Positions 6,501-25,564 of a DNA stretch of 52,561 bases are shown piece after piece. This stretch comes from a virus (lineage: Duplodnaviria > Caudoviricetes): IMG/VR virus record IMGVR_UViG_3300047560_001441, positions 1-52,561 of that record; one strand, given 5' to 3'. The notes beneath the pieces were generated by a model, which had not been told where the DNA came from, made no database searches, and worked only from the letters and a program-made list of their open reading frames with translations. A program made the position numbers and the translations under genes. Each line of letters begins with the position of its first letter. The stretch's first letter is position 1.

Positions 6501-7868
6501 TGCACCACCAAACTCACCTGCAGGACCCTGTGATCCTACAAAGCCTGTTGAACCTGTATACCCGTCATTACCTTGAATACCCTGATCACCTTTAGATCCT
6601 GTATATCCTGTTGAACCTTGGGAGCCAGTGAATCCAATATCACCCTTTGACCCTGTATAACCTGTACCACCTTGTGATCCTGTAAAGCCTGTTGTACCTT
6701 GATCACCAGTTGAACCAGTATACCCTGTAGTACCTTGAATACCTTGTGATCCAGTAAAACCAACTGATCCAGTAAATCCTATTTCGCCTTGTGATCCTAC
6801 ATAACCTGTACCACCTTGTGATCCAGTAAACCCTTCTACACCTCTACTACCAGTATAACCTGTTGTTCCTTGTATACCCTGTGAACCAGCAAAGCCTACT
6901 GATGTAGACCAATAAGCAGTTGTACCATTGGAAGTAAGAACCTGTCCAGCTGTACCAATAGAACCGTTTGCATTTAATCCTTTAATAAAGGACGTAGCAG
7001 TTCCATCAACTTTAAACAGTTCATTATTATTACTTGAATCAGTAACTACAAAGTAACGAGTAGGATCACCAGCACCACCCCACAACTTAACTTGCATAAA
7101 GACATTGGAACCTGATACATCTGAACCAAATGCCCAGTAGGGATCAGCATAGTTAGGTAGTAATAAATTAGGATTAGCATAACCTGAGCTAGTGAAGGAT
7201 GCTGCGTTTACTGAACCTTTAAAGTAAGCATCATTCCAACTTGCACCTGGTTGACCTAAATTAGCAACACCATCACTATTAGGTTGAATAGATGCATCAC
7301 TACCACTAATTTGAATGAATTGAGAACTTGTACCAAGATATAATGAATAATAAGTAGGAGCAAATATTTGACCTGAGCTGTAATAGCTAATAGGAACGTT
7401 TACAACGCCTTGGCTATCAAGTGTAAGCTGATAAGAACCGTTTATAAGTTTATCAGTAGTTGCAACACTTCCTGTTGAACCTGTATAACCAATACTACCA
7501 GTTGATCCAGTATATCCAGCATCACCTTTTGAACCTACAAATCCTGTTCCTTGTGATCCAGTAAAACCAATTGAACCGGTGTAACCAGCTGCCCCTGGAC
7601 CCCAATAAACATCTGAACCGTTTGTATAAAGAACTTGACCACCCGAACCCAAACTATTATTTGCTATAATAGATTTTACTGTTAAATTTCCTGAAACATT
7701 TACGTTTGTATTATTAGCACCAATTTCAAATACAACAGAACCATTGCCGGAATATAAAATTCCGTCAGTCATGTTAAGGGCTAATTCACCAGGGTTTGTG
7801 AGGGTTGTGTTATTAGCAGCACGTCCAGAAACAGACGTACGCTTAATTTGGATCAGGTTATTTGCCAT
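3561..7868 (-). CDS. Large collagen-like tail fibre with Mtd_N-like N-terminus and internal C1q-like domain
   Basis: N-terminal IQIKR...GELALN...LY motif, multiple Gly-X-Y runs, two copies of a DDSTSxIKGHF domain, and a C1q/TNF-like segment (KFTPTIAGYYEV). Confidence 0.8.
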   Translation of the reverse strand: MANNLIQIKRTSVSGRAANNTTLTNPGELALNMTDGILYSGNGSVVFEIGANNTNVNVSGNLTVKSIIANNSLGSGGQVLYTNGSDVYWGPGAAGYTGSIGFTGSQGTGFVGSKGDAGYTGSTGSIGYTGSTGSVATTDKLINGSYQLTLDSQGVVNVPISYYSSGQIFAPTYYSLYLGTSSQFIQISGSDASIQPNSDGVANLGQPGASWNDAYFKGSVNAASFTSSGYANPNLLLPNYADPYWAFGSDVSGSNVFMQVKLWGGAGDPTRYFVVTDSSNNNELFKVDGTATSFIKGLNANGSIGTAGQVLTSNGTTAYWSTSVGFAGSQGIQGTTGYTGSRGVEGFTGSQGGTGYVGSQGEIGFTGSVGFTGSQGIQGTTGYTGSTGDQGTTGFTGSQGGTGYTGSKGDIGFTGSQGSTGYTGSKGDQGIQGNDGYTGSTGFVGSQGPAGEFGGAAFEYSFSTNTAHTSTANGYLNFSNTNLVYATSLYVDYIDALGANSYSFLQTVDDSTSAIKGHFSLRDLANAQNYAMFAITGTHTEDVDHFDIPVSYLSGVTSFTNGSNVVITFARTGNIGDTGFTGSQGGTGYTGSLGFTGSIGFSGSKGDTGYTGSTGDQGITGFTGSQGGTGYTGSIGSQGTTGYTGSIGFTGSIGNTGYTGSIGSQGTTGFTGSQGGTGYTGSQGSQGTTGYTGSVGYVGSQGNLGYTGSQGVGYTGSTGYTGSSAALSVSDYVVQAKLNADQTISADGDTVIQFIDDFDPQNWWNASTYKFTPTIAGYYEVTLHVWWDTPSANTNQYNSQLRKNGSGFAIAQNPKLTWSGVSQEITRIVYMNGTTDNIDCTAYTGGSTQKVLSGSGSWFAAALITNGVGYTGSIGGTGYTGSVGSLGYTGSQGATGFTGSVGYTGSIGSVGYTGSIGSTGFTGSVGYTGSKGDTGSSGSTGYTGSTGFVGSQGPQGTFGGAAFDYTFNANTDNSDPGNGGLKLSNTNASQATTLYINENADNFVSVYNYLQTIDDSTSSIKGHFTVTEKANTDHFALFAITGNHTHYTNYFAVPSSFLSGSNTFSNALDIIITFARTGDIGDTGYTGSIGSTGYSGSVGFTGSIGDTGYTGSIGSQGGTGYTGSIGVGYAGSTGYTGSSAAGYTGSSGSVGYTGSAGSGGGGGTSVTLSATPPGSANTGDLWWSSETGSLYVYYNDGDSSQWVTTSPNAGTGSPSSSFITLPAGTTSTAPLTFQTGTNLTTATAGAMEFDGKTLLYTPAGTQRGIVPGMQFFRLEQDLVGLNSTAVQNIYGVGVTLSSNTIYRFEAETLWYKSAGTTSHTVSVLFGGNATINNIEYIVHSTSQASNTFNFIDTGVAGIAVTRETSTVISSSSSSAGIARYWKWSGTVSIGSGGTFIPQYQPSAAPGGAYTIRAGSFISIYPIGTAGSNVSVGTWA

Positions 7869-10097: not shown

Positions 10098-13000
10098 TCA
10101 AATAACCAAGGCAACCCAAACAGTGTTACTAGAATCACCCGCATTAATACTTAATATGTTTGTGTTAGTATCGTACCAGAAAGTTCCAGACTGTGCACCT
10201 ATTGGTGCAATATCAGTATAATAGGAACCTGCTGTATCACCTTTTGAACCAGTATAACCAGCACCCTGAGAACCAGTATAACCTAATGTACCTTGTGAGC
10301 CAGCAAATCCTGTTGTACCCTGTGAGCCGGTAAATCCTGCACCACGAGAACCAGTGTAGCCCAAATCACCACGTGAACCAACAAAGCCTACTGAGCCAGT
10401 AAAGCCAGCACCTCTTGAACCAGTATAACCTAAATCACCTTGAGAACCAACGTAACCAGCTCCAGTTGATCCTGTATAACCAATAGACCCAGTATATCCA
10501 AGATCACCATAAGATCCAGTATAACCTGTATCACCTAATGAACCGGTATAACCTTCAGATCCTGTATAACCCAAATCACCAATAGATCCAGTATATCCAA
10601 TATCACCAACAGATCCTGTGTAACCTATAGATCCTGTGTAACCTATTGATCCTGTATAACCTAGATCCCCTATAGAGCCAGAGAAACCAACTGAACCTGT
10701 ATAACCTGCAGAACCAGTATATCCATATCCACCAGTAGAACCTATTGATCCAGCATAACCAGTATCACCGCGGTCTCCTAATCTTGCAAGAGTGAGAGCA
10801 GTAATAGAAGTATCAGGTATTGATTGATCACCAGATAAGAATGAAACTGGAACTGTAGCATATGTTAAATCATCTTCTATTTCTCCAACAATTGCAAACA
10901 ATGCATAATTGATTGTGTTGGTGGTTGATTGTATTTTAAAATGACCTTTGATTCCCGATGTAGAAGATTGAACGATCAACAAGGCATTATAAAAATACTG
11001 CAAGTCAAGTGCTTGTTTACTTACGTAAACAGATGTTGCGTTACCAAAAGCAGAATTAGAAAATCTTATTACACCTGTACCAGGATCAGCTGATGTAGTA
11101 TTTGCACTGTAATAAAATAAGAATGTTGAGCCAGCAAAGTTACCAGCAATACCTTCTGAACCTCGTGAACCTACATAGCCTATATCACCTTTTGATCCTG
11201 TGTAACCAATAGAACCAGTATAACCTAGCGGACCTATATCACCTTGTGAACCAACATAACCTGCACCAATAGAACCAGTGTAACCTATTGATCCTGTATA
11301 ACCTAGATCACCATAAGAACCAGTATAACCCTCAGAACCTGTATATCCAATATCACCTTGTGAACCTGCATATCCAGTATCCCCTAATGATCCTGAATAA
11401 CCTAATGGTCCTTCAGAACCAGTATATCCGAGATCACCAATAGACCCAACGTAGCCTTCTGAACCAGTATAACCTACACCTTGAGATCCAACAAATCCTG
11501 TAGAACCAGTGTAACCTGTAGATCCTGTAAATCCAAATGAACCAGTAAAACCTTGTGATCCGGCATATCCTAAGGGTCCAATATTACCTTGGATACCTTG
11601 CACACCTTGTGATCCTACAAAACCAGTTGAACCGGTAAAGCCAGTAGAACCAGTGAAACCTAACGAACCCGAGTATCCAAATGAACCAACAAAGCCTGTT
11701 GAGCCAACAAAGCCTGTTGAACCAGTGTATCCGGTTGATCCTACATAACCGGTATCACCTTTAGATCCTGTGAATCCAATTGAACCAGTAAATCCTTGTG
11801 ATCCCGTATATCCAAATGAACCTGTATAACCAAAAGAACCTGTAAATCCAACTGAACCAGTAAACCCTTGTGATCCTGTATAACCAAAGGATCCTGTAAA
11901 TCCAGCATCACCCTTAGATCCGACATATCCAGTTGATCCTGTAAAACCAAAAGATCCGGTATATCCCAATGAACCTGTATAACCTATATCACCTCTAGAT
12001 CCTGCAAACCCAACACCTTGCGATCCAGTATAACCAATAGAACCAGTATAACCAAAAGATCCTGAATAACCTGTATCACCAATATCACCTGTTCTTGCAA
12101 ATGTTAGAGCAACAGTTGTATTATTTGAATAATTTGTTGTACCAGAAACATAACTTACAGGAATAATGAAATAATTACTTACATATTCGTGATAACCAAC
12201 AATATTAAAAATTGATGATTTACCAGCTTCATCAATACCATTGATAGAAAACTGACCTTTAATTGCTGATGTGGAATCATCAATTGTTTGAAGGAATGTA
12301 TATGTTGAATCATAATAAACGTCATTTTCACTAATATACATTCTTGTAATAGAAGAATATACATTACTATCAAATTTATAATATCCAGCACCAGGATCAG
12401 TATTTGAGGTGTTGGCTACAAATTTATAATTGAACGAAGCGCCACCAAAGTTACCGGCAACACCTTGCGGGCCCTGTGATCCTCTTGAGCCTGAATAACC
12501 GGAATCACCTTGTGATCCTACAAAACCAGAGGAACCTGTGAAACCAGAAGAACCACCGTATCCTGTTTCACCTCTTGATCCTTGATAACCCTCAGATCCT
12601 CTGTAACCAGTAATACCTTGTGTAGTTCCAAAGTATCTTACTTCTATTTCTGCACCAATTTGAGGTGCATAATTTAGTTGCAATATTGTACCAGATACTG
12701 TATAATCTATTATAGGAGTTTCAAGAATACCATTAACATAAACAAAAATATGACTTGGATCAGATGTTTGATCTAGTAAAGTAAATTGAGTGTTACTTCC
12801 ATTAGCAATGTAACGAGATGATTTAGAAGGTCTACCAACCTCACCCATAGATCCAGAATAACCAATAGAACCTGTGTAACCTATAGATCCAGTATAACCA
12901 TCTTCACCACCTGCAGGACCCTGTGGACCAGTAGCACCAACAGATCCTTGATAACCTGTATCACCAAGTGATCCTCTATAACCAGTATTACCTGTAGAAC

Positions 13001-13685
13001 CAATATAACCTGTTGATCCTGAATAACCAGTAGAACCTATAGTGATGTCAAAATAACGAACATCTATTTCTGCACCAATTTGAGGAGCATAAGAAAATGA
13101 AAGTGTGGTTCCTGAAACATTATAATCTACAAGAGGTGTTTCTAATATACCATTCGTAAAGACCATAATGTGGTTAGCATTAGCAGTATCTTCAATTAAA
13201 GTAAATTGAGTGTTACTTCCATTACCAACATATTTTGATGATTTAGAAGGTTTACCAACAAGGCCTAATGAACCTGAAAACCCAATAGAGCCAGTGAAAC
13301 CTATTGAACCAGTATAACCTTGTGAACCACCAGGATCACCTGCTACACCCTTATCACCAGCAGATCCTTTATATCCAGTATCCCCAAGTGATCCACTATA
13401 TCCTAAACTACCTGAATATCCGGTAGAACCTGAATAACCTTGTGAACCGGTATAACCAACACCATCATTTTCAATATATCTGATTTCAATATCAGCTAGA
13501 TAAGGAGGAGTAGAAGCCAGATTTACAGTGTTACTATTTGTGATTGTGTAGTCAACATCTGGAATTTGTACAAGACCATTTACTATGACAAGTATGCTAT
13601 TAGCTAAATTTACCGTGTCAATTAATGGGTACGAATTGGCTGTGCCACTTGCAGATATTTGTTGACTTTTAAAAATCAGCGCCAT
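10098..13685 (-). CDS. Long collagen-like (GYTGS-repeat) fibre protein
   Basis: Mostly Gly-X-Y. It has three small beta domains (VxxNGxxxxPxxDY..IxxRY) and two DDSTSAIKG-type domains. Confidence 0.8.
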   Translation of the reverse strand: MALIFKSQQISASGTANSYPLIDTVNLANSILVIVNGLVQIPDVDYTITNSNTVNLASTPPYLADIEIRYIENDGVGYTGSQGYSGSTGYSGSLGYSGSLGDTGYKGSAGDKGVAGDPGGSQGYTGSIGFTGSIGFSGSLGLVGKPSKSSKYVGNGSNTQFTLIEDTANANHIMVFTNGILETPLVDYNVSGTTLSFSYAPQIGAEIDVRYFDITIGSTGYSGSTGYIGSTGNTGYRGSLGDTGYQGSVGATGPQGPAGGEDGYTGSIGYTGSIGYSGSMGEVGRPSKSSRYIANGSNTQFTLLDQTSDPSHIFVYVNGILETPIIDYTVSGTILQLNYAPQIGAEIEVRYFGTTQGITGYRGSEGYQGSRGETGYGGSSGFTGSSGFVGSQGDSGYSGSRGSQGPQGVAGNFGGASFNYKFVANTSNTDPGAGYYKFDSNVYSSITRMYISENDVYYDSTYTFLQTIDDSTSAIKGQFSINGIDEAGKSSIFNIVGYHEYVSNYFIIPVSYVSGTTNYSNNTTVALTFARTGDIGDTGYSGSFGYTGSIGYTGSQGVGFAGSRGDIGYTGSLGYTGSFGFTGSTGYVGSKGDAGFTGSFGYTGSQGFTGSVGFTGSFGYTGSFGYTGSQGFTGSIGFTGSKGDTGYVGSTGYTGSTGFVGSTGFVGSFGYSGSLGFTGSTGFTGSTGFVGSQGVQGIQGNIGPLGYAGSQGFTGSFGFTGSTGYTGSTGFVGSQGVGYTGSEGYVGSIGDLGYTGSEGPLGYSGSLGDTGYAGSQGDIGYTGSEGYTGSYGDLGYTGSIGYTGSIGAGYVGSQGDIGPLGYTGSIGYTGSKGDIGYVGSRGSEGIAGNFAGSTFLFYYSANTTSADPGTGVIRFSNSAFGNATSVYVSKQALDLQYFYNALLIVQSSTSGIKGHFKIQSTTNTINYALFAIVGEIEDDLTYATVPVSFLSGDQSIPDTSITALTLARLGDRGDTGYAGSIGSTGGYGYTGSAGYTGSVGFSGSIGDLGYTGSIGYTGSIGYTGSVGDIGYTGSIGDLGYTGSEGYTGSLGDTGYTGSYGDLGYTGSIGYTGSTGAGYVGSQGDLGYTGSRGAGFTGSVGFVGSRGDLGYTGSRGAGFTGSQGTTGFAGSQGTLGYTGSQGAGYTGSKGDTAGSYYTDIAPIGAQSGTFWYDTNTNILSINAGDSSNTVWVALVI

Positions 13686-13760: not shown

Positions 13761-16496
13761 ATGAACCTTCCCTCTATTGCTATTCTTGATTTAATTGGAC
13801 TTGTTTATGATGGAACCACTCTTTCTAAGAAGGGTTTAGGTGGTTCAGAATCAGCAGTTATCCTTATTTCTAAAGAATTAGCTAAATTAGGATTTCCTGT
13901 TACCGTTTTTAATGCCTGCGCAGAAGACGACGCAAAACCTGGCATCTATGCAGGCGTTAGTTACAGGCCTATTAATAGTATAAAATCTACTGATCAGTTT
14001 GATATAGTCATCTCCTCTAGAACTGTTATACCCTTTATTCCTGATCATTATTTTGAAGCCTATAAAAATGCTACTCGCCATTCTCCGGAGATATTCAAAC
14101 CTTTGCGAGATAAAGCTAAACTTAAGATCATGTGGATGCATGATACTTTTGCTAATGGTGATATCAATCTAGAAGATCTTCTTGTAAATGGTTATATTGA
14201 TAAAATCTTTACACTATCAGATTTTCATACTGCCTATGTTACAAATTGTCATCATGGCAAGAGACGTAATTTTGAAGTGCTTAAAAATAAGGTATTTCAA
14301 ACACGAAATGCTGTAGTGAAATATATTGATGAGGTGGATATTAGAGCCAAAGATAGAAATCTTTTTGTTTATAATGCTTCAGTAACAAAAGGGCTTTTAC
14401 CACTCATTGATAGAATCTGGCCCAGACTTAAACAATATATTCCTGATGCCAAGTTAAAAGTTATTGGTGGATTCTATAAATTTAGATCCGAAGCACCACT
14501 TGATGCACAGGGTGAGACTCTTATGAAACTCATGAGAGATCCTAAGTACTCTCAAATGGGTATTGAGTTCACTGGAATCATTTCACAAAGTGAAATAGCC
14601 AAAATTCTTTCTCAAGCTTATATGTTCTTGTTTCCCGGAGCTTTTCCAGAAACATTTGGCATATCAACTTTAGAATCTTTAACATATAATACTCCTCTTG
14701 TAACAACCCGTTTTGGTGCTCTAGAGGAAACAGCTATTGAGCAGGCTTCATACTTTATTGATTATGCAATTGAACCAAATAGTTTATTTACTGAGATCAA
14801 TATTGACGATCAAGTAAATAAATTTGTTGAAAAAGTTATCAGAGCATATAATGATCCCTACCTTCACCAACAAAAACAATATTACTGCAATGTAATTCAG
14901 GATATTAATACCTGGGATACTGTTGCAATTCAGTGGAAGCAATTTTTCTTTAAACAATTTGATCTACCCCTTTCAGTAGATGAATATCGTAAAGTATCAT
15001 ATATCAATGATAAGGTGCATAGAGTTTTTGGTAGAAGGTTTAGTAATAATGTTGAGTGGAATAATTATAAATCAGGTTTTGAAAAAAGAATTAATATAAT
15101 TACTCCATTTTTTAATGCTCAAAATTATATTGAAAAATGTCTTCAATCGGTTGCCTCTCAAGACTATGATAATTATATGATGTTCTTGATCAATGATTGT
15201 AGTACAGATGATAGCCTTAATGTAATTAAAAAGTTTATTGGTAATCTACCTGTTAAACAACAAGATAAATTTATTATCATTAATAATAAAGAAAATCGTG
15301 GGGCTGTTTATAATCAGATCAAAACAATTAAAAATTATCCTTTGGGGGATGATAGTCTTGTAATGTTACTTGATGGTGATGATTGGTTAAAAGCAGATAA
15401 TAATATCTTTAATTTTTATAATAATCTTTTTGCTGATAATAAAACAGATTACGCCTATGGAAGTTGTTGGTCATTAGCTGATAATATTCCTTTGATTGCT
15501 CAACCTTATCCAAAAGAAATCAGAGAATCTAAATCCTATCGTAATCACAAATTTAATTGGGGAATGCCTTATCCCCACCTCAGAGTTTTTAAGAAACACC
15601 TTGTTGATAATGTTGATGAAAAGGTATTCATTGATGATAATGGAAATTGGTATAAGGCAGGTGGAGATAATGCTACCTTCTATAATATAATTGAACAAGC
15701 TGATCCTAATAAGATAGTAGCCGTTCAAGAAATTTTCTATAACTATAATGATTTAAATCCACTAAATGATTATAAGGTTCATTCAGAACTTCAAAATCAA
15801 AATGCTAGTAAGATTGTTTCAAAAGAAAAACATGATGTACAAGAGATTGTTACAGAATCACAACCTGAAGAAATTAAAATTCAAATTGAAAGAAAACCAG
15901 TGAAAAATATTCTTATTGCTATTCCTACTGCTAGAAACATTGAAGCTCAAACGTTTAAATCAATTTATGACCAAGTTGTTTCTGATGATTATAATCTTAA
16001 TTTTCAATACTTCTACGGTTATCAGGTTGATCAGGTTCGCAATCTAATTGCTGATTGGGTTGTTAAAGGATATGATTATTTGTTTGCAGTTGATTCTGAT
16101 ATTGCATTTCCTGCTGATACTCTTTCAAGATTATTAGCTCATGATAAAGATATTGTAACAGGAGTCTACAGACAGAGAGTCCCTGATAGACAAACATTAG
16201 AAATTTTTGAGGCTAATGATAGAGGTGGATATACACACATTGATTGGGAAAAGATCAAAGGCAAGGGTCTAGTTGAAATTGGCGCCTGTGGTTTTGGATG
16301 TGTACTTGTTAAAAAGCAAGTTATGGAAGATATTGGTTATCCTCAATTTGCCTATAAATCAGCCTTAGATCACAATCACACATTCTCAGAAGATCTTTTC
16401 TTTGCAAAGAAAGCTTCTGAAAAGGGTTATAAATTTTATGCTGATACATCAATACTCTGTGATCACATAGGATCGTATACGTTTAGAGTATCTTAA
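13761..16496 (+). CDS. Three-domain glycosyltransferase (GT-B/GT4-like + GT2 + second GT-A-like domain)
   Basis: GLGGSESA and FPETFGISTLES (GT4-like); IITPFFNAQNYIEKCLQSV, NDCSTD, LDGDD (GT2); YLFAVDSDI, GACGFGCVLVKK, SEDLFF (GT-A). Confidence 0.9.
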   Translation: MNLPSIAILDLIGLVYDGTTLSKKGLGGSESAVILISKELAKLGFPVTVFNACAEDDAKPGIYAGVSYRPINSIKSTDQFDIVISSRTVIPFIPDHYFEAYKNATRHSPEIFKPLRDKAKLKIMWMHDTFANGDINLEDLLVNGYIDKIFTLSDFHTAYVTNCHHGKRRNFEVLKNKVFQTRNAVVKYIDEVDIRAKDRNLFVYNASVTKGLLPLIDRIWPRLKQYIPDAKLKVIGGFYKFRSEAPLDAQGETLMKLMRDPKYSQMGIEFTGIISQSEIAKILSQAYMFLFPGAFPETFGISTLESLTYNTPLVTTRFGALEETAIEQASYFIDYAIEPNSLFTEINIDDQVNKFVEKVIRAYNDPYLHQQKQYYCNVIQDINTWDTVAIQWKQFFFKQFDLPLSVDEYRKVSYINDKVHRVFGRRFSNNVEWNNYKSGFEKRINIITPFFNAQNYIEKCLQSVASQDYDNYMMFLINDCSTDDSLNVIKKFIGNLPVKQQDKFIIINNKENRGAVYNQIKTIKNYPLGDDSLVMLLDGDDWLKADNNIFNFYNNLFADNKTDYAYGSCWSLADNIPLIAQPYPKEIRESKSYRNHKFNWGMPYPHLRVFKKHLVDNVDEKVFIDDNGNWYKAGGDNATFYNIIEQADPNKIVAVQEIFYNYNDLNPLNDYKVHSELQNQNASKIVSKEKHDVQEIVTESQPEEIKIQIERKPVKNILIAIPTARNIEAQTFKSIYDQVVSDDYNLNFQYFYGYQVDQVRNLIADWVVKGYDYLFAVDSDIAFPADTLSRLLAHDKDIVTGVYRQRVPDRQTLEIFEANDRGGYTHIDWEKIKGKGLVEIGACGFGCVLVKKQVMEDIGYPQFAYKSALDHNHTFSEDLFFAKKASEKGYKFYADTSILCDHIGSYTFRVS

Positions 16497-16696: not shown

Positions 16697-17022
16697 TAGC
16701 GTGTCACCTCTGGATTTACAGTTACAATACCCTCAAGTATTCTAGATGTGACATTATTCGCATGGAGTTGCAAATCATAAACATATCTTGAATTGGTTAG
16801 ATTTGCTGTTACAGCTGCATTCATTGATAAAGTAACGAGGCCGGTATTACCACCTAAAGTTACATTAATAGTATTGTATGTTGTTGATGTGTATGTTTTT
16901 CTAATTTGTGCATTGGCAGTAAAATCAGTAATATCAAATGCATCACCATTTGAATCAATTAAATAAACATTATGAATAAAGTTTGCACCCTGATCAACTA
17001 CTAAATTTGATTTAATTGCCAT
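16696..17022 (-). CDS. Conserved phage virion protein (tail-fibre connector-like)
   Basis: NLVVDQGA..FDITDFTANAQIRK..RYVYDL..RILEGIVTVNPEVT is a common T4-like structural family pattern. Confidence 0.75.
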   Translation of the reverse strand: MAIKSNLVVDQGANFIHNVYLIDSNGDAFDITDFTANAQIRKTYTSTTYNTINVTLGGNTGLVTLSMNAAVTANLTNSRYVYDLQLHANNVTSRILEGIVTVNPEVTR

Positions 17023-18583
17023 TTTTTAATCTATCAACTTCTGCTTTGAGTTCTTTGATGGCTTCAATTAGTAGAGGTACTAATTTTTCATATTGAACAG
17101 TTAGGTAATTTTCATCAATAGGTGCGGGATGAACTATCTGAGGTAATACTTGTTGAACTTTTTGAGCAGATACCCCTACCTGAATATCTTCCTCAGTATA
17201 ACCCAACTCCTTAGCCTTTTCATTTCCCTTATAATAAAATCCTTCAAGAGAAGTAACTTTATCAAGAGCATTTTCAATTGGACCTAATACTTCTTTAAGT
17301 CTTTCATCAGAGTACTTGGCAATTACGTTACCCTTAGCTCTGAGTTCACCTTTGTAATCTTCACCTGGTGCATTTACTCCAACACCAACACTTCTAAATA
17401 CACCGTCAATATCATCTTTATCGGTACCATGATTATCATCAAAACCTAGAATACCGTTGATTTCATCAACAATCACCAGGACTTGTTTAAGTTTACCTTT
17501 TTTCTCAGGAAGAATTAAATCAAATCCAATGTTTGTATTAGGAGAAACTAATCTAACATAACCAGTATTACCTGTTGCATCAATTCTAATTGCACCATTA
17601 ACATGTAATACATCAGAAGCAGATGTTCTTCCTGTTCCTACGAACACATTACCAGAATTTCCATCTACACGGAGACGTACGGTCTCATTGGTTGCAAGAA
17701 GTAAATCCCTAATTGAAGAATTGTGTCCCACCCACATTCCATTTGAATCAAGTGAGATACCACCATTATATCCATTACCAACAATTTTTAATTGACTGGT
17801 CCAATTATCATCTGGTGTAATATTATATGTTGAATAAATTATAAGATTACCGGTCTGTGTATTTGCAACTGAAAGCAATCCATTTTCAAAATAATTATTG
17901 GTACCAAGAAATTCTGTATTACCAAAAAACTTAGCAGTACCTGTACCAGTAAGATTTAAATTAGAAGTTGTTACTTTACCAACATTTAATTCAAATGCAG
18001 TTAGATAAGAGTTTGTATCACCGGCAGGAAGATTGTCATTGAAAACAATGTAAATACCATCTCTGGTTACATAAGTATTTCCATCTTCTGCACCAACATT
18101 TAATTGGCTGCCAACAGTTGCATTTAATATATTGGCTGTGTTTATTACAATACTATTATCATAGATATATGTGTTACCAATAATAACTCTGTCAGAAAAA
18201 TAAGCGGCGTTTGAATTTACGTTAGCAGTTGTGATTACAGTGTTATTTAATGATATAAGTGTTTTAGTATAAGCTGTTGTACCATCAATCAACATACCTG
18301 AGGGTGAAATGATGTTGTTTGCTGTTGATGTTGCTTGTATGATAATTGCGGATGCATTAATAGTGGCATTAGCCGTATCTGTACCAATAAACAAGGAACC
18401 AGCATTAGCTGTTACATAAGAATCTGCTGTAAAGGTGCCCGTGATAGCAGCGTTGCCTACAGAAGTATTAGAGTTTACAGTAACTACTGAATTATTAATA
18501 GTAGCAATAACTTGATTAGTTTTTGACAACCATTGTCCAAATGAATCAGTAGCTTCTACAACCGGTGCTATGTAAATAGTCAT
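17012..18583 (-). CDS. Tail fibre with C-terminal intramolecular chaperone (peptidase S74-like)
   Basis: YSDERLK..IENAL.KV..GVSAQ.VQ.VLP..YLTVQYEKLVPLLIEAIKEL; N-terminal DSFGQWLSKTN. Confidence 0.9.
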   Translation of the reverse strand: MTIYIAPVVEATDSFGQWLSKTNQVIATINNSVVTVNSNTSVGNAAITGTFTADSYVTANAGSLFIGTDTANATINASAIIIQATSTANNIISPSGMLIDGTTAYTKTLISLNNTVITTANVNSNAAYFSDRVIIGNTYIYDNSIVINTANILNATVGSQLNVGAEDGNTYVTRDGIYIVFNDNLPAGDTNSYLTAFELNVGKVTTSNLNLTGTGTAKFFGNTEFLGTNNYFENGLLSVANTQTGNLIIYSTYNITPDDNWTSQLKIVGNGYNGGISLDSNGMWVGHNSSIRDLLLATNETVRLRVDGNSGNVFVGTGRTSASDVLHVNGAIRIDATGNTGYVRLVSPNTNIGFDLILPEKKGKLKQVLVIVDEINGILGFDDNHGTDKDDIDGVFRSVGVGVNAPGEDYKGELRAKGNVIAKYSDERLKEVLGPIENALDKVTSLEGFYYKGNEKAKELGYTEEDIQVGVSAQKVQQVLPQIVHPAPIDENYLTVQYEKLVPLLIEAIKELKAEVDRLKNGN

Positions 18584-18822: not shown

Positions 18823-20535
18823 TCACATCTGTAAGGCAACTGCTCTTACATCTCTCATTGTTGGGAAATTAGCTGTTGTATCTGATACTAATACAATTTT
18901 AATTGAGAAAGTATCAAATCCTCTGAAAAGAGCACCACTACTATTATAATATGTTAATGTTCCTGCTGGTATATCCTTTGTAACATCTCCAACTGAATCA
19001 GCATATGCTATTGTATCTACTGGTGATGTAGGTCTTGTACTAGCTGCGGGTACACCCAATTGATATTCTTTATAATCTTCAAAGTTTTTAGGTGAACTAA
19101 AGATAGTCCCAAGATTATTTAAATACTCAAGTTGTGTCCATGGTTTTGTATCAAATAAATCACTATCAACCTGGGAATTTAAAAATTTAGCATAAACATA
19201 AATGTTTGTACCAGCAGGACGATACCCAGTTACCCAAACCTTTAAATCTTCTGCAACCGTATCCAATACAACTGTTCTAGAAATATATTTACTTCTTGAA
19301 CTACCATATCTTGTATGTTCATTAGTTGTATCATTGTTAATTTGATTTGTGATATAATTGATTGTTTTAGTAGAAAGATCAATTACAGGTGAAAGCCATT
19401 GGCTATTTGTATACAAATCAATTTCATAGGTTGAGTTGCCTTTAGTACCATATGATCCTGTTGCAACTTCGTTAGAATAACTTCTTAAAACACGTTCATA
19501 ATCACGGAGCTCTGCTAGGTCTTGATTGTATACTTTTACAAAGTTAGAATCTTTTGCAAAAGCACCACCTGAATAAGATGAGTTAGCAGTTCCCTTATAT
19601 GAGTAATCTGCTGCAGTTCCTATTGGTTCATTCATTCTAAATCTTGGAACAACAGCATTATAAACAATATCATCAAGTACAGAAATTGCAGCGTTTGCAA
19701 TTCTATAGGTTTCTGTAAGTAATGTTGGATCACCTTCACTAGGGGGTCTAAAAATTCTTAAATTACCAAAATTTGCAGATGCTGGTGTTACAGATGCATT
19801 GGTAAATTTACCATTTGATCTAATATACAAGTCCCCTGCAACTTCGTCAACATAAGTTACTCGACCAAAAGGAAATTTTGTTGTGTCTGTTAAAACTGTA
19901 AAATCTGTAGCATTGGCAGCATATACTAAGTCACCGATATTGATAGGAGTTGAAGAATTTTTTCTAAAAATACCAGTAGTCATATTTAAACGACAAAAAT
20001 CTATATTATCATTTCTAAATACAACCTTACCGGTACTTACTGGAAAGTTTGCAGCATATAGATTAAATTTAATATCTTGAGATTGAACAGCAGTCCAAGA
20101 ATCACCGTTAGAAGAAATATAGAGTACACCTGAATAAGGTTGTTGTGTAACATTCTGTCCAGTAAGTGTATCTTTACCACCTATTTCTGAAACCCATATA
20201 TCAAAGTCAGTTGTATTATTGTCAGGATATACATAGAATGCGTACATTGAATCTGAGGCAAGCATTAAAGGTTCTTGAAAATAAAATATCGTCTCAGCAC
20301 TAGCATCGTCACTAGTTAAAATTTGTGATGGGTATAAATGCCCAGATCCCATTCTCTTTGAGGTATCAGGAACACCATTTGTACATTGTACAACTACACA
20401 AAATGCACCAAGAGTAGAAGATTTATTTTTAAAAAAGATACCAATTCCGGTTAAAAACACACCAGGCAATCCTCCTAATGATTTTGAATCAATAGAGAAG
20501 GTCTGTGCTATCGGATTTGTAGTTTCTAATGCCAT
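18823..20535 (-). CDS. Baseplate/virion structural protein, C-terminal part of DUF4815/VrlC-like family
   Basis: NPIAQTF, QQPYSGVLYISSNGDSWT..QSQDIKF, SPVIDL, KYISR.V.L, C-terminal FSIKIVL..P..RDVRAVAL. Confidence 0.75.
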   Translation of the reverse strand: MALETTNPIAQTFSIDSKSLGGLPGVFLTGIGIFFKNKSSTLGAFCVVVQCTNGVPDTSKRMGSGHLYPSQILTSDDASAETIFYFQEPLMLASDSMYAFYVYPDNNTTDFDIWVSEIGGKDTLTGQNVTQQPYSGVLYISSNGDSWTAVQSQDIKFNLYAANFPVSTGKVVFRNDNIDFCRLNMTTGIFRKNSSTPINIGDLVYAANATDFTVLTDTTKFPFGRVTYVDEVAGDLYIRSNGKFTNASVTPASANFGNLRIFRPPSEGDPTLLTETYRIANAAISVLDDIVYNAVVPRFRMNEPIGTAADYSYKGTANSSYSGGAFAKDSNFVKVYNQDLAELRDYERVLRSYSNEVATGSYGTKGNSTYEIDLYTNSQWLSPVIDLSTKTINYITNQINNDTTNEHTRYGSSRSKYISRTVVLDTVAEDLKVWVTGYRPAGTNIYVYAKFLNSQVDSDLFDTKPWTQLEYLNNLGTIFSSPKNFEDYKEYQLGVPAASTRPTSPVDTIAYADSVGDVTKDIPAGTLTYYNSSGALFRGFDTFSIKIVLVSDTTANFPTMRDVRAVALQM

Positions 20536-20612
20536 TAATATAACTTTCTTTAAATATTTTAATTATAGTAAACTATTGGTTAATGATCCTGAATAGATTA
20601 ATCTGCATATTA

Positions 20613-22436
20613 TTATCCGAACAATCCATTCTGAGCATGATCATTTGCGGTATCACGAGCCGGATCTCCAAGATAACCACCGCACGGATCAGGAGTATAA
20701 CCATCTTTGTTATGCACAACATAATTTTCTACAATATATGTATTATCACCATCTAACATTAGATTATAAATTACATAATCTTCGGGTTTGGTAATTGAAT
20801 CAATAGTATCTACAGATTCAAAAATACCATCATCTCCTGCAATGTATCTTTGAACCTTAGATCCTATTTCAATTTTTGTTAATTTATCCTTGAAATTATC
20901 TTCTACAGCCCAGCTATTTGGATCAAAAGCGCCCCATCCATTATCAGTCATAATTGGATGCTCTTCTGATACGAAAGCCCAATTATTATTAAATGAATAC
21001 ATCTTTCTATCACCAATGACAGGAGACTCAATTCCTATTACGTTGTTGTATGCGTTATTATCAAGACCACTTTTTACCTTATCACCAACTTCAATTTCAC
21101 ATATTTTCTTTTTATTTCCGTCATACATCACAACCAATGCTTCTGGATCAAAGCAACAATATGATGGTGGAGGAGGTGCAGGTGGTGGAGGTGGATCTTG
21201 TGTAGTCCAAGTTAAAGGTGGTGGACTATAAGTATTTGATTTTGGTGTAAAGATTGGTTCAATAATTTTAAAATTGACGTCTTGTGAAGTTACTGACAAT
21301 CCTTGTGATGTGTATACACCTTCAGCTGATGTAATAGCCTCTCCACCAGTTTCCAAACTATCTAAATTAGATAGCATAAATGATCTTTCTCCTGATCTAA
21401 ATGTATTATCAGGAAGATTAAAAATCATTGCAATTTCACCATACTTATTAGCAACAAATGGACCGCCAGTATTACTTGTTGCAACAAATGCAGCCGCTGG
21501 ATCACCAGCAAAAGATGCATTAAATTTATCAATATCGGTAGTACCATCAACCTTCAAAAAGCTGTTAGCAATTTTTGCTGTTGTACAATATGTACCAACT
21601 GGTTTTCTATCAAAATAAGCATATAGTTTAGAACCAGGTCTTAAAAATCTACCTATAATTCCAACTTTTCTACCTTTCATATAAGGTAACATTGCAACAT
21701 CTCTTACAACATTTCCTAAATCTTGTTTTGTTGTTTGAGTTGTTACTTTAATATCAGTGATAGTTGTTTTAGCATCCATTGACCAGTAGTTAGTTCTACC
21801 TTCTTCTTTATCTAATTTTGGTGCACTATATGTAGTATCAATATCTTTAAAAGCACCATTGGCTGCTGCATCTTGGAAAGCCTTAGCCTGGTCAATAGTG
21901 ATGGTTTGAGGAGCCATTTCTTTGTTAGTATTAGTACCATCATAATTTGGATAAAGATGTAAAGCACCTCTAAAATTGTAAAATGTTTCAGCTGGGTTTC
22001 TATATTCAGTAGCTTTATCATTTCCACCAATTTTTACGCTGGTATAATCAAGCATTAATAGACGACCATAAATTTTTACAGCTGTACTTGTTGATGTATC
22101 AACAATCATGTCATTATAGGTTTCTGTAAAATTAGGTCTTGCTATAGATTTTGAAGAACTAATAGCCATGCTAAATTCAGGGTCATTAGTTCTGGCAATG
22201 GTTCCATCATTGAATGGATCAGCAAATATACCATTTTTAAATCTTTCTACGCCACCTGCACCTGGAACAGTACTTGGCAATGAAAGAGTTTTAGTATCAA
22301 GGGCTAGAGCATTTAATACTGAATAATATTCAAGAGCTTTGATTCTTTGTTCTAAACCAAAGATTTCTTTCATAGTGTAGCCTTTGGCTACTTCAATATC
22401 AACACGAACTGCTAAATCTTTTCTTTTAAAACCCAT
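20613..22436 (-). CDS. Middle part of DUF4815/VrlC-like structural protein with C-terminal Hint domain
   Basis: YTMKEI..LEQRIKALEYYS.L, RFKNGIFADPF, F.LP..TFRSGER.F, then poly-Pro and a Hint domain. Confidence 0.8.
   Translation of the reverse strand: MGFKRKDLAVRVDIEVAKGYTMKEIFGLEQRIKALEYYSVLNALALDTKTLSLPSTVPGAGGVERFKNGIFADPFNDGTIARTNDPEFSMAISSSKSIARPNFTETYNDMIVDTSTSTAVKIYGRLLMLDYTSVKIGGNDKATEYRNPAETFYNFRGALHLYPNYDGTNTNKEMAPQTITIDQAKAFQDAAANGAFKDIDTTYSAPKLDKEEGRTNYWSMDAKTTITDIKVTTQTTKQDLGNVVRDVAMLPYMKGRKVGIIGRFLRPGSKLYAYFDRKPVGTYCTTAKIANSFLKVDGTTDIDKFNASFAGDPAAAFVATSNTGGPFVANKYGEIAMIFNLPDNTFRSGERSFMLSNLDSLETGGEAITSAEGVYTSQGLSVTSQDVNFKIIEPIFTPKSNTYSPPPLTWTTQDPPPPPAPPPPSYCCFDPEALVVMYDGNKKKICEIEVGDKVKSGLDNNAYNNVIGIESPVIGDRKMYSFNNNWAFVSEEHPIMTDNGWGAFDPNSWAVEDNFKDKLTKIEIGSKVQRYIAGDDGIFESVDTIDSITKPEDYVIYNLMLDGDNTYIVENYVVHNKDGYTPDPCGGYLGDPARDTANDHAQNGLFG
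20709..21155 (-). other. Hint (intein-like/BIL) autoprocessing domain, 149 aa
   Basis: Block A CFDPEALVVMYDG..KICEIEVGDKV, block B SEEHPI, block F/G VIYNLMLDGDNTYIVENYVVHN. The +1 residue is Lys and there is no endonuclease. Confidence 0.85.
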
Positions 22437-22438
22437 AA

Positions 22439-25400
22439 TTATTCTGCTTCTGGAAATGTAAGTGACGGATAAGGTGTGACATACACATCTGCAATTTTTA
22501 ATCCTGTATCACTAATGATTGGAGGTTTAGCTTTAAATGAAGGAACACTTGATTTTACATTTAAATGTCCATCTTTATTTATTATCAATGTATCAACTCT
22601 AGGTAGATAGTATTCTATGTTATATGTAAAATTACTATCAGGTTCAATAGCTGCTTTGATAGTTGGATGGGTATAAAAATTTGGATTTGTATTTGCAGGA
22701 TTAACAGTAAAGTTCGGCCATACGCCAGTTTGATCACTAATAGCTGTATTAACCATCACAGGTCTAAAATCTATATGGTTTCTTAAATCATATACTTGAC
22801 CTGCAATATCTTTGTATATTGGTATTTCAGCTGTTTGTAATGCTGACATATCAGTTAGATCACTGTCATTTGTTTTATATGAATCAACTGAGAAAAATCC
22901 AGCCTTAGCTCCTGTTGTATTAGGAGTTAAATGTTTTAATCTTACAAATAATCTAGTTGAGGATGTAATTGCTGATTTATATTGAGGTAACACTGTAATA
23001 TATGATAACCCATATAAATTATCTCTTTGACCATTATCAAATGCAAACCAGTCTTTTCTATCAGGATTGGTATTTGAGAAATTAGATCCAAGATGAATTG
23101 CATCAATTTTATACACATCAGGGAATCCTAATGACCATGGCCCATTAGTACCTGTTGCGTGTGTGGCACAATTAACAGCTACCCATATACTCTTACGAGT
23201 GACTTTTTCAATTGGCGTAGCTTGATTTTTAATTTGAGGAATTTGTGCTCGCATTGTGTATGAAGTTGACTCAGCATCCCTCAAGCACACATTTGCTACC
23301 ATTTCAGTTATTTTTCCGGCAATTGAACTGAATGAGATGATATTACTACCACCATTAAAATCAACAGTAGATCCGGCTTTATGGAATCTATTAAAATAAA
23401 TGTTAGTAGGAATCGCGGTTGAAGAAAGATTTGGTGTCAATCCAATCAAGCTTGCACTGTATACACCTGTGACTGTATGATAAGTCACTCCTCCACTATG
23501 GGTAGCTCTCAAGGTATCACCAACTCTAGGTGTAACTCCAGCATCAACAGTAGCTTGGGTTGTTGTTAATCCTCCTGCAGGGAATGTATATCCAGCAGGT
23601 GAGTTTACAAAGCTTCCGGCTCCACCAGTGACTGCAGAACAGCTGACATTAGTGTGAGTATTATTTGCTGTACCTGAAACGGATCCAACAGAACGTGATC
23701 CTGCGGCACCACTATATAAATTTGCAACAACATCCGTGTTGAAGTACACATCAATTCCTAGTGATGCAGTATCACTTAGTCCTGTAGTTGCTCCAAAATT
23801 GTACTCATCAGTTGTTGAAAAAGTTGCATACACGTAGTTAGTAGTTTTAGTAGCTGTTACAGGGTCAGATGTTGTTCTAAAAATGTAACTAGTTGCATTT
23901 ACACCTGCTGAGGAAAGTAGTCTTTTTGTACCATCAAGACCTGTATAGAACAATAATGACTTATTAGTAGAATCAGTTTGGTATAATGTTGATTGGCCTG
24001 AACCAGCATCTCTAACTATATCACCAAATATTTTACCATATGTACCATTAAGATATATACTTCTTGCATCAGCACCAAAACTATAACCTGCTGCCATCTG
24101 CACATCATTAACATAAAGATGATATATTGCTTGTGCAGTACCCTTAGTACCCGAATACCATTTAACTGCTCTAACTGCAGCATTTCCAATTAATGTACCA
24201 ACAGGGGCTGATATACTTACAGATTTTGATAATGCATATTGATTTGCATTATAAATGTTTACTCTTGCCACACTTCCCGTATCTACAATACCTGCAAAAT
24301 CAGCAACTTTCATATAGTTACCAAAGTTTGCGGTTGTTCTTTCATTGAGAATAGAATTAGATGTGATACCTCTATCAGCTTCAATTTGCTTAGGTGATCT
24401 ATATTCCACACGATAACCATCTACATAGGCAATACCAGGTGAAATAGTATAATACATTGTCTGTGAATTAGATGAAGGCTCTACGTTAACCTGGAATGGT
24501 TTTACAACATAGTCTCCAGACTCTTCTTTTGTTCTTTTTGCAAGAATATCACCAATTGTACTTAACATAGGATCTTGTTGAATAGTAACTGCAGTTCCTG
24601 TACCTTTGCTATAATCTACAACAGGAACAAAATCTTTTGGAACAGTTACAGTTGCATCATTGGTATCATATGCAATAAGTTCAGGTACCAATTTTAATCT
24701 GTAGGCGCCAGGAGCATTGTAGTTTGGTGATCCTATTGAATTATCATAAAGTGATGGATCTTCTGTGGGCTCAACAATATATTCTTTTGTTGTAAACCCT
24801 ACCTGTATACCTACAGCATTTGAATCATGTTCTTTAATTATAAAATTCTTGGCAGAAGATTTTAAGAAAAATCCTTTTTGGAAAATTATACCTTGACCGA
24901 CATGTAATCCAAAACCAGTTCCTAATGCATTTACAGTATTATTGCTTGGTAGAACATAAAGATCACCAAGATAATAATTTGAATTTAATGATCCGTTTTT
25001 ATCCTGAGTAGGTGAATAGACATTAATTTTTTCACCATCAGAATTAAATTCATAAACTGCAGATCCATTACCTAAAAGTGAACCACCAGTAGAAGCATCA
25101 GAACGACCAGTATTTAAATAAATTAAATAAGCACGATTGGTATTATTACTACCTCTATCAACCGCTGCTTCAGCACCAGAGAAAGCTTCAAAAACTGCAG
25201 CTCTCAATCCGGTTGTATTTGAAACTAATAAATGTGCTTCTGAAAGATGAGAATAAGGTGTTAAAGGATTTATTAATTCTCTAGTGATGGTTTTAAAATC
25301 TAAAGTTGAAGTGTTGCTATCTTTAAATTTAACCTGCTTAAGACTTTTATATTCAGTAAAATTACAACCTTCAACAACTGAACCATCTTTATAAATGCTA

Positions 25401-25564
25401 GAACCAAATCTTGAAATTTGTTTCTGCATCATTGTTTGAAGCTGAGTTAATTCACGAGCCTGAACCGCAGTAGAAGGGCGGAACAAGATGCGATAATACA
25501 TCTTATCTTCATCATAATCATCATAAAAAGGAGCAACATTAAAATTAGTTTGCAACTCAGCCAT
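22439..25564 (-). CDS. N-terminal part of DUF4815/VrlC-like large baseplate protein
   Basis: NFNVAPFYDDYD..YYRILFRP..AVQARELTQLQ, APGAYRLK, LAKRTKEESGDY, DNGQRDN, IDFRP, YYLPRVD. Confidence 0.85.
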   Translation of the reverse strand: MAELQTNFNVAPFYDDYDEDKMYYRILFRPSTAVQARELTQLQTMMQKQISRFGSSIYKDGSVVEGCNFTEYKSLKQVKFKDSNTSTLDFKTITRELINPLTPYSHLSEAHLLVSNTTGLRAAVFEAFSGAEAAVDRGSNNTNRAYLIYLNTGRSDASTGGSLLGNGSAVYEFNSDGEKINVYSPTQDKNGSLNSNYYLGDLYVLPSNNTVNALGTGFGLHVGQGIIFQKGFFLKSSAKNFIIKEHDSNAVGIQVGFTTKEYIVEPTEDPSLYDNSIGSPNYNAPGAYRLKLVPELIAYDTNDATVTVPKDFVPVVDYSKGTGTAVTIQQDPMLSTIGDILAKRTKEESGDYVVKPFQVNVEPSSNSQTMYYTISPGIAYVDGYRVEYRSPKQIEADRGITSNSILNERTTANFGNYMKVADFAGIVDTGSVARVNIYNANQYALSKSVSISAPVGTLIGNAAVRAVKWYSGTKGTAQAIYHLYVNDVQMAAGYSFGADARSIYLNGTYGKIFGDIVRDAGSGQSTLYQTDSTNKSLLFYTGLDGTKRLLSSAGVNATSYIFRTTSDPVTATKTTNYVYATFSTTDEYNFGATTGLSDTASLGIDVYFNTDVVANLYSGAAGSRSVGSVSGTANNTHTNVSCSAVTGGAGSFVNSPAGYTFPAGGLTTTQATVDAGVTPRVGDTLRATHSGGVTYHTVTGVYSASLIGLTPNLSSTAIPTNIYFNRFHKAGSTVDFNGGSNIISFSSIAGKITEMVANVCLRDAESTSYTMRAQIPQIKNQATPIEKVTRKSIWVAVNCATHATGTNGPWSLGFPDVYKIDAIHLGSNFSNTNPDRKDWFAFDNGQRDNLYGLSYITVLPQYKSAITSSTRLFVRLKHLTPNTTGAKAGFFSVDSYKTNDSDLTDMSALQTAEIPIYKDIAGQVYDLRNHIDFRPVMVNTAISDQTGVWPNFTVNPANTNPNFYTHPTIKAAIEPDSNFTYNIEYYLPRVDTLIINKDGHLNVKSSVPSFKAKPPIISDTGLKIADVYVTPYPSLTFPEAE

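Follow-up and report, generated by a model that had tools for sequence, protein, structure and literature searches.

An optional Hint cassette with a His-Asn-Lys end, probably self-cleaving, in the linker of a split VrlC-type baseplate protein

The virus record IMGVR_UViG_3300047560_001441 (Caudoviricetes), analysed here as a window of 52,561 nucleotides (nt) that comprises the complete IMG/VR record (CheckV completeness estimate, 32%), encodes a VrlC-type baseplate protein in separate pieces, one of which ends in a Hint domain. The reading that we favour, with a probability of roughly 0.55, is that this domain would act like an A-type bacterial intein-like (BIL) domain: an optional, endonuclease-free insert that removes itself from the protein after translation, and not a dedicated maturation device. 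By analogy with A-type BIL domains, self-cleavage is the most likely activity of the window Hint. The features of the locus are as follows; lengths are in amino acids (aa) for each open reading frame (ORF), and model confidence is given as the predicted local distance difference test (pLDDT).

22439..25564, minus strand: ORF A (1041 aa), encoding the N-terminal part of the VrlC/DUF4815 baseplate protein (Pfam DUF4815, phrog_358)
20613..22436, minus strand: ORF B, 607 aa, middle piece followed by linker, Hint, Lys and tail (stop codon at 20613-20615)
21231..22436, minus strand: core of B (residues 1-402), with homologues among the VrlC-type tail proteins of cultured phages (tblastn)
21156..21230, minus strand: Pro-rich linker, residues 403-427, the last of which, Cys427, is position -1 (21156-21158); pLDDT 49-59 in the longer model
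20709..21155, minus strand: Hint domain, Cys428 to Asn576, 149 aa (alignment, AlphaFold2 model, Foldseek and profile)
21153-21155, 20958-20960 and 20709-20714, minus strand: catalytic codons of the Hint, for Cys1, block-B His493 and His575-Asn576, respectively
20706..20708, minus strand: Lys577, the +1 residue, Lys or Arg across the family
20616..20705, minus strand: low-complexity tail of 30 aa with one Cys (PDPCGG), predicted to be disordered (pLDDT 25-34)
20536..20612, minus strand: spacer of 77 nt from the ORF B stop to the ORF C ATG, with the purine-rich AAAGAAAG at 20544-20551
18823..20535, minus strand: ORF C (570 aa), starting MALETTNPIAQTF and encoding the C-terminal part of the VrlC-type protein (phrog_358)

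ORFs A, B and C are evidently colinear pieces of a single VrlC/DUF4815 baseplate protein. ORF A matched Pfam DUF4815 with an E-value of 2e-41, and the three ORFs followed one another along phrog_358, a profile of 2056 positions (ORF A at 4-943, ORF B at 949-1403 and ORF C from 1420 onward); the match covered residues 10-402 of ORF B and began at residue 5 of ORF C. Because all three fit this one profile, the locus holds three genes, not two, for a single giant protein. A first, sequence-only reading of the same DNA had described a baseplate protein fragment with the rest of the protein encoded separately; this was confirmed as to the protein and its division, and it has to be amended in that there are three pieces, with ORF B in the middle. 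In tblastn searches ORF B matched 690 phage records, some of them annotated as VrlC, virion-associated or tail protein, and past residue 402 there were no matches at all among these 690. The upstream neighbours belong to baseplate wedge, hub and tube-cap PHROGs and the downstream neighbours are tail fibres; the source is an uncultured myovirus. According to passages of PMC7029224, pelagi- and cyanomyophages have VrlC in place of T4 gp7, and the protein is regarded as a component of a two-layered baseplate, and a section of PMC4621102 places the homologue of Listeria phage A511 in the baseplate by immunolocalisation.

The C-terminal part of ORF B reads ...TWTTQDPPPPPAPPPPSY-C-CFDPEAL...YVVHN-K-DGYTPDPCGG...GLFG-stop. 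The elements named in the sequence-only reading were all found in place, namely the linker, the Cys-Cys pair, the 149-aa Hint, its His-Asn end, and the Lys with its tail (31 aa together), as well as the gene for NPIAQTF..., which begins 77 nt after the ORF B stop. The Hint is the only copy in the whole record and resides in a Pro/Gly-rich linker of variable length, at the point where pieces B and C divide. ORF B ends in TAA and ORF C, whose ATG lies at 20533-20535 with AAAGAAAG 8-16 nt upstream of it, is in a different frame. Read-through or a frameshift joining B to C in the window was ruled out by the TAA, the other frame and extra intervening stops.

It is clear from model and profile comparisons that the window domain is a genuine Hint, an assignment far beyond chance. 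An AlphaFold2 model of the domain built on 11 relatives had a pLDDT of 92.3 and a predicted template modelling score (pTM) of 0.86. Compared with the Protein Data Bank (PDB) by Foldseek, it gave 56 matches at E<=0.001, and all the matches listed were Hint folds (inteins, BILs, Hedgehog, Vint); the best among those listed was Tetrahymena BUBL1 BIL2 (E 5e-9, template modelling score 0.77), followed by mini-inteins, Hedgehog and the Clostridium thermocellum BIL. Similarly, the sequence profile of the 11 relatives found BIL2 as its first match in the PDB (E 3e-6). A direct phmmer search of PDB sequences with the 205-aa region returned nothing at E<=1.

The window Hint carries the residues of a class 1 intein, that is, Cys at position 1, the block-B Ser-x-x-His motif (here Ser490-Glu-Glu-His493) and a terminal His-Asn, but fails the class 1 intein pattern at +1, where it has Lys577. 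There is also no re-joined second extein in the window; a 30-aa tail is all that follows the Hint, and piece C is a separate gene. The call of a non-canonical Hint lacking a nucleophile at +1, made in the sequence-only reading, was therefore correct. A-type BILs, described by Amitai 2003 and Dassa 2004 as cited in PMC4031507, end in His-Asn and have no nucleophile at +1; according to the same portion of that paper they mainly cleave but can also splice, using the amino group that Asn cyclisation releases. Precedent for splicing and cleavage by these domains is likewise given in part of PMC5874633, which places them in variable, non-conserved regions of their host proteins. The N-terminal Cys, the C-terminal His-Asn and the non-nucleophilic +1 residue were all found in the window Hint, and it is located in a variable, non-conserved linker in which 12 of 24 related loci have a Hint. 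By these features the window Hint fits a testable A-type BIL definition.

We aligned the window Hint with those of 10 relatives (11 sequences, 28-94% identical to one another). Cys1, block-B His66, His148 and Asn149 were invariant (11/11), the first residue of block B was Ser or Thr, and the +1 residue was Lys in 10 sequences and Arg in one. The ratio of nonsynonymous to synonymous substitution rates (dN/dS) over the Hint domain was 0.06-0.16 in eight pairs, a ninth pair being saturated, and the domain is evidently under purifying selection. In addition, an exhaustive profile search of 1.84 billion representatives gave 8,398 family members at E<=0.001, 2,426 at E<=1e-10 and 328 at E<=1e-30. 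All residue and copy tallies given below are for the best 150 of these 8,398 representatives (labelled P....), a list that favours multi-copy proteins because scores sum over copies. Cys1 was present in 278 of 278 copies. Of the 209 complete copies, 206 had His-Asn; at +1, 195 had Lys, 14 had Arg and none had Cys, Ser or Thr, a tally with some bias since the +1 column was included in the search profile. An ordinary intein with Cys, Ser or Thr at +1, which the sequence-only reading had thought homologues might reveal, was thus absent from both samples.

These counts bear on the possibility that the domain is a remnant, either of a canonical intein between B and C that lost its C-extein by a gene break and is decaying, or of a system in which B-Hint and C splice in trans. 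The position of the Hint would suit such an origin, as it is the junction at which fused relatives carry the Hint in frame before a DPxAQ(T/S)F motif, and so would the existence of relatives in which an in-frame Hint ends HNK-TAA (HNK, His-Asn-Lys). However, Cys, Ser or Thr at +1 was found in 0/209 family copies and 0/11 relatives, and the fused forms have Arg or Lys there; no decay is visible, with dN/dS at 0.06-0.16 and all blocks intact; and ORF C lies in another frame, 77 nt away and behind a TAA. A decayed intein was rejected on the dN/dS values and the invariant residues. A split intein acting by trans-splicing was also rejected: the Hint is complete through His-Asn and is thus not an N-fragment, and since the phrog_358 match starts at residue 5 of ORF C there is no room in that ORF for an intein C-fragment. 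We consider a remnant intein highly improbable, and the window Hint was, on this comparison, never a canonical intein.

The near-constant Lys at +1 also brings in the possibility of covalent tailoring, in which the thioester at Cys427-Cys428 would be passed to an amine and an isopeptide bond formed. Candidate acceptors are the epsilon-amine of the +1 Lys and a lysine elsewhere, either in piece C or in an adjacent baseplate subunit, and the outcome would be piece B stapled into the baseplate or bearing an isopeptide-linked tail. Attachment of the baseplate protein to a partner was also among the proposals of the sequence-only reading. The closest solved relative by both fold and sequence, BUBL1 BIL2, is reported by its depositors to form, on splicing, an isopeptide bond between a Lys epsilon-amino group and a C-terminus (excerpts of PMC8616854). 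Other points in its favour are the Lys at +1 in 195/209 copies, the retention of His-Asn-Lys even with nothing after it, and the fact that B and C belong to one assembly and form a single polypeptide in most relatives. The 14 of 209 copies with Arg, which occurs in every context, speak against Lys as a universal acceptor, and Arg is a poor acyl acceptor. Loci without a Hint (8/24 split, 2 fused) evidently build a baseplate without such a link, the loss and replacement of the cassette argue against an essential staple, and no candidate partner was identified. Tailoring of this kind therefore seems unlikely to us. Arg at +1 was considered as a marker of a special context and was rejected, as it occurs seven times before another Hint, six times in the last copy and once before a long gap.

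Another idea is that the Hint and its Lys together make a self-contained isopeptide-splicing cassette, with the Lys side chain in the role of the intein +1 Cys. Such a cassette might excise itself from any linker and join B to the Lys by an isopeptide bond, or acylate a Lys of a neighbouring subunit. This would explain why a basic +1 residue travels with the domain, why copies stack head to tail and why His-Asn-Lys is kept at a C-terminus. If true, phages would carry a large family of protein ligases that need no ATP and are related to Tetrahymena BUBL. We regard it as rather improbable.

Twenty-four related IMG/VR loci (L001-L024) were fetched, of which L008 and L021 stop short of the junction between B and C and are uninformative. 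No locus had more than one Hint, and every Hint was placed where piece B ends. The states of the B/C junction were as follows.

Hint, Lys and a tail of 18-36 aa, C a separate gene: window, L002, L003, L005, L006/L007, L012, L013, L016
Hint ending HNK-TAA, ATG of C 4-5 codons further on in the same frame: L014, L023
Hint-bearing, truncated by the contig end, grouped with the HNK-TAA forms: L015
B, Hint and C as one ORF of 1141 aa, ...HN-R-DPIAQTF: L020
No Hint, Gly/Thr-rich tail, C a separate gene (8/24): L001/L022, L004, L009/L010, L011, L018, L019 (the L010 tail is interrupted by the contig end)
B-C fusion without a Hint: L017
A-B-C fusion without a Hint, ORF of 1739 aa: L024

Among the best 150 representatives 14 were VrlC-type relatives. 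The fused proteins P0014, P0021, P0094, P0050 and P0043 carry one to three Hints just ahead of piece C (P0014 has two); four of the five hold the full A-B-C, and P0050 consists of B and C only. In four of these five the Hint stands directly before the DPxAQ(T/S)F motif, the junctions being HNR/DPLAQSF in P0014, HNR/DPVSQTF in P0021, HNK/GGDPVAQTF in P0094 and HNK/GSDPIAQSF in P0050. The site of the Hint is thus between the linker of B and the most conserved motif of piece C, and because fused relatives carry Hints at this same junction the site is old and conserved. That split genes with a terminal Hint arose from a fused form is plausible, a direction inferred with unrooted trees, and the in-frame HNK-TAA forms suggest a fused ancestor. 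In all, the B/C junction is found in five states: fused, fused with a Hint, split with a Hint, split without a Hint, and with the Hint replaced. This series is a natural experiment, in which splitting of a structural protein at the protein level and at the gene level can be compared as substitutes for each other.

The junction between A and B is of a different kind and carries no insert. It is tight (22434-22441), with 2 nt from the ORF A stop to the ORF B ATG and a difference in frame. The break (...PYPSLTF.EAE stop, then M.Y.R.DLAV) recurs in every locus from L001 to L023 that covers this region; in L024 there is no such break, the single fused ORF running across it.

A further possibility is that the Hint is never processed and stays on the virion as a permanent structural or binding domain, for example an adhesion or decoration module, at the distal tip of B on a proline stalk. 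It would be consistent with the Pro-rich stalk, the position at the end of a baseplate protein and beside the tail-fibre cluster, and the low dN/dS of the whole domain. The tandem arrays resemble structural repeats, and the domains that flank family members (lectin-like, fn3 and Gly-rich) are of the kind typical of surface proteins. Residues required solely for catalysis are, however, invariant or nearly so (11/11; 278/278; 206/209), and binding does not need them; moreover, in the fused relatives an unexcised Hint would precede the most conserved motif of C inside the polypeptide. A permanent domain is in our estimation quite unlikely.

The presence and absence of the Hint did not follow the phylogeny of the rest of the protein. 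In a tree of the B core, several deep nodes of which are weakly supported and in which three fully fused outgroups lie on very long branches, the Hint-less L001, L018, L017 and L004/L009/L011 were nested among Hint-bearing rows: L001 grouped with the window and P0039, L018 was sister to L023, L017 was sister to L020, and L004/L009/L011 formed a clade of their own. The histories of the B core and of the Hint disagree, as the following amino acid identities illustrate.

L014 and L013: B core 88%, Hint 43%
L014 and L023: B core 40%, Hint 57%
L006 and L013: B core 50%, Hint 93%

At the DNA level, L006 and L013 were 88.3% identical over 460 nt coinciding with the Hint, and 67-74% identical in the flanks; their synonymous divergence (dS) was 0.56 for the Hint, as against 1.57 for B and 1.63 for C. 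The same pattern, although weaker, was seen between L005 and L012 (0.29 in the Hint vs 0.71 and 0.64). L014 and L016 were 91-92% identical in flanks of 5.2 kb and 3.9 kb, and across the linker-Hint block of about 550 nt between them no DNA similarity was detectable. Similarity of the window to L001 ended within the Pro linker at 21181 and restarted at 20555, just upstream of ORF C. In the pairs L013 and L016, and L005 and L013, discordance between core and Hint was absent. By these comparisons the Hint behaves as a discrete optional module that is inherited, lost, replaced and exchanged apart from its flanks. The sequence-only reading had proposed a domesticated Hint; this is not supported, since the domain is present in 12/24 loci, with Hint-less forms nested among the others, and acts as an exchangeable cassette and not as a fixed part of the protein.

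If the domain acts as a self-removing insert, Cys428 would attack the Cys427-Cys428 peptide bond by an N-S acyl shift to give a thioester, and cyclisation of Asn576 would break the Asn576-Lys577 bond, so that the Hint is excised. Piece B would then either be left ending at Cys427 (cleavage) or be linked again to the Lys-tail by way of the amino group released, a BIL-type ligation that uses no nucleophilic side chain. The insert would have to remain catalytically competent, as the baseplate protein would otherwise be crippled.

Several points weigh against self-removal as we propose it. The chemistry ascribed to this Hint subfamily is drawn entirely by analogy. In L014, L023, P0084 and P0093, His-Asn-Lys is kept at the extreme C-terminus, where C-terminal cleavage would free one lysine only, so simple self-removal fails to explain its retention. 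A purely selfish insert accounts neither for the near-invariant basic +1 residue nor for the tandem head-to-tail arrays, which occur in 104 of the 150 best proteins (2-7 copies, spacers mostly of 0-5 residues) and in which Lys directly precedes the next Cys1 at 16 junctions. The purifying selection would fit an insert that is selfish but must splice as well as a useful one. In addition, the window copy fell below the Pfam cut-offs (PF01079, 23.8 bits vs 29.7; PF14623, 15.8 vs 27; PF14890, 14.3 vs 35.8), an NCBIfam scan of it gave no match and no usable family, and the longer AlphaFold2 model (linker, Hint and tail) was of low confidence, with a pLDDT of 62.9; we used that model solely for the predicted disorder of the tail. 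Multi-copy relatives exceed the cut-offs of several Hint-clan models.

Cysteines around the Hint bear on the choice between cleavage and ligation. The extra Cys before Cys1, which the sequence-only reading had singled out, is real and is kept in 9/9 Hint-plus-tail forms, including the window; it occurs in 6/14 of the VrlC-type representatives but family-wide is rare (32/278 copies), so it is a conserved feature of this clade and not part of the Hint signature. The tail motif PDPCG also occurs in the tail of the Hint-less L001 and in P0039, and a Cys was found in 7/9 post-Hint tails, in 5/6 Hint-less tails and in the pre-Hint linker of 3/4 HNK-ending forms. This recurrence, with the PDPCG motif, would favour ligation, as it suggests a mature B whose C-terminus is normally a flexible tail containing Cys. 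The Cys at -1, however, would give an equal result after simple cleavage, which counts against ligation, as do the tails themselves, disordered by prediction and otherwise unconserved. The tail Cys was also considered as a displaced +1 nucleophile and rejected: it lies 8 to about 34 residues past the Lys and is missing in 2/9 tails, and a precise catalytic role for it is for these reasons unlikely.

BIL-type Hints are already known, with biochemistry for a handful only, and the window copy belongs to a very large subfamily with a signature of its own, His-Asn followed by Lys or Arg and usually in tandem. In the portions of the literature that were available, we did not find a Hint in VrlC/DUF4815 or a His-Asn-Lys Hint subfamily described; the word 'intein' is absent from PMC7029224, the pelagimyophage paper in which VrlC serves as a marker. 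The curated libraries searched contain no dedicated model for the His-Asn-Lys/Arg subfamily, and the database names found for relatives were all 'hypothetical protein' or 'Hint domain containing protein'. If the domain only cleaves, it is an ordinary selfish insert of modest biological interest. Should it splice or ligate with no nucleophilic side chain at +1, it would also serve as a ligation tag that is compact and independent of cysteine, and interest would rise sharply with ligation or isopeptide chemistry.

Within the wider family, the best Atlas clusters were viral. Arrays of up to seven copies were seen in P0002-P0010 and P0046: P0007 has seven copies, P0004 (842 aa) is nearly all made up of its five Hints, and P0002 (4119 aa) has five Hints between a large N-terminal part and fn3-like repeats with a ConA-like lectin domain. 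A conserved domain of about 75-90 aa starting CWVARKVYGEDNP comes after the last Hint both in P0004 (residues about 768-842) and at the C-terminus of P0056; the two proteins are otherwise different, and the Pfam scan of related proteins gave no family for it. Three single-copy proteins, P0080, P0100 and P0146, have lost the His of His-Asn (GN, NN and VN) and all continue R-GC...ICEY..., a common downstream module with Cys at +3; they may be a different processing variant.

A tblastn search of 50,697 phage records with the Hint gave nine weak records. The best was from the cultured Providencia phage PSTNGR1 (Autographiviridae; L025 3563-4516, QPB11246.1), where a 317-aa hypothetical protein, encoded upstream of the terminase gene, has a Hint starting SCFTEDC... 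as its C-terminal half. This Hint is of a different subtype, since it is without the terminal His-Asn, and by its sequence looks like an N-cleavage-only type.

Among the other genes of the cluster, the second one downstream from ORF C (17012-18583, minus strand) encodes a tail-fibre-like protein of 523 aa that ends in a Peptidase_S74 intramolecular chaperone domain at residues 425-484 (E 1.6e-11), a second and unrelated self-cleaving module of the window gene cluster. In the tail-fibre cluster, on the opposite strand, a 911-aa ORF (13761-16496, plus strand) combines a glycosyltransferase-like region (phrog_2170, E 4e-12) with a phrog_1574 domain at its C-terminus; it fits the variable 'host recognition cluster' that adjoins VrlC in pelagimyophages, as set out in passages of PMC7029224. 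Two further ORFs, of 1435 and 1195 aa (3561-7868 and 10098-13685, minus strand), have many collagen-like and tail-fibre repeat matches.

Among known systems, the tail-fibre Peptidase_S74 intramolecular chaperone is comparable in function only: it is a self-cleaving C-terminal module discarded after assembly, but its fold and chemistry are unrelated. The PT-HINT domain (PF07591) of polymorphic toxins likewise stands ahead of a variable C-terminal module; the window copy differs in having no match to PF07591 at E<=0.1 and no toxin domain downstream. In two nearby Atlas clusters 74-89% of members carry PF07591, as do some members of the family. The Hedgehog autoprocessing domain (PDB 1at0, 6tyy; fold E about 1e-6) is also a C-terminal Hint, and its thioester serves to free the N-terminal part; it differs in lacking the terminal His-Asn, which is invariant in the window subfamily, and in needing a sterol-recognition region. 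No such region follows the Hint here, as there is a 30-aa tail in the window and nothing in L014, L023, P0084 and P0093.

Class 1 mini-inteins (gp41-1, DnaB) have the fold and blocks A, B, F and G in common with the window Hint. They are self-excising single-turnover enzymes and likewise show presence/absence polymorphism and horizontal spread, and the Hint of the fused relatives stands, as theirs does, directly before a conserved host motif. In contrast to them, the window Hint occupies a linker that tolerates large indels and has only the 30-aa disordered tail as its C-flank, and because +1 is never Cys, Ser or Thr the canonical branched intermediate would be impossible in this subfamily. 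BUBL1 BIL2 (PDB 6y75, 6tmm) matched the profile over nearly its full length at 16-17% identity; it is alike in that it is a BIL with other domains flanking it, in a repetitive locus, and works without Cys, Ser or Thr at +1. It differs in being eukaryotic, in its ubiquitin-like flanks, nothing ubiquitin-like being found beside the window Hint, and in its reported Lys isopeptide conjugates.

The A-type BIL of C. thermocellum (PDB 2lwy) ranked 28th in the fold comparison (E 6e-6), with a profile match (E 3.3e-4) over the C-terminal third only. The window subfamily differs from it by the near-invariant basic +1 residue and the frequent head-to-tail arrays. The two are alike in the N-terminal Cys, the His-Asn end, the lack of a +1 nucleophile, a length of about 140-150 aa without an endonuclease, and a place in a variable linker and not at a conserved catalytic site.

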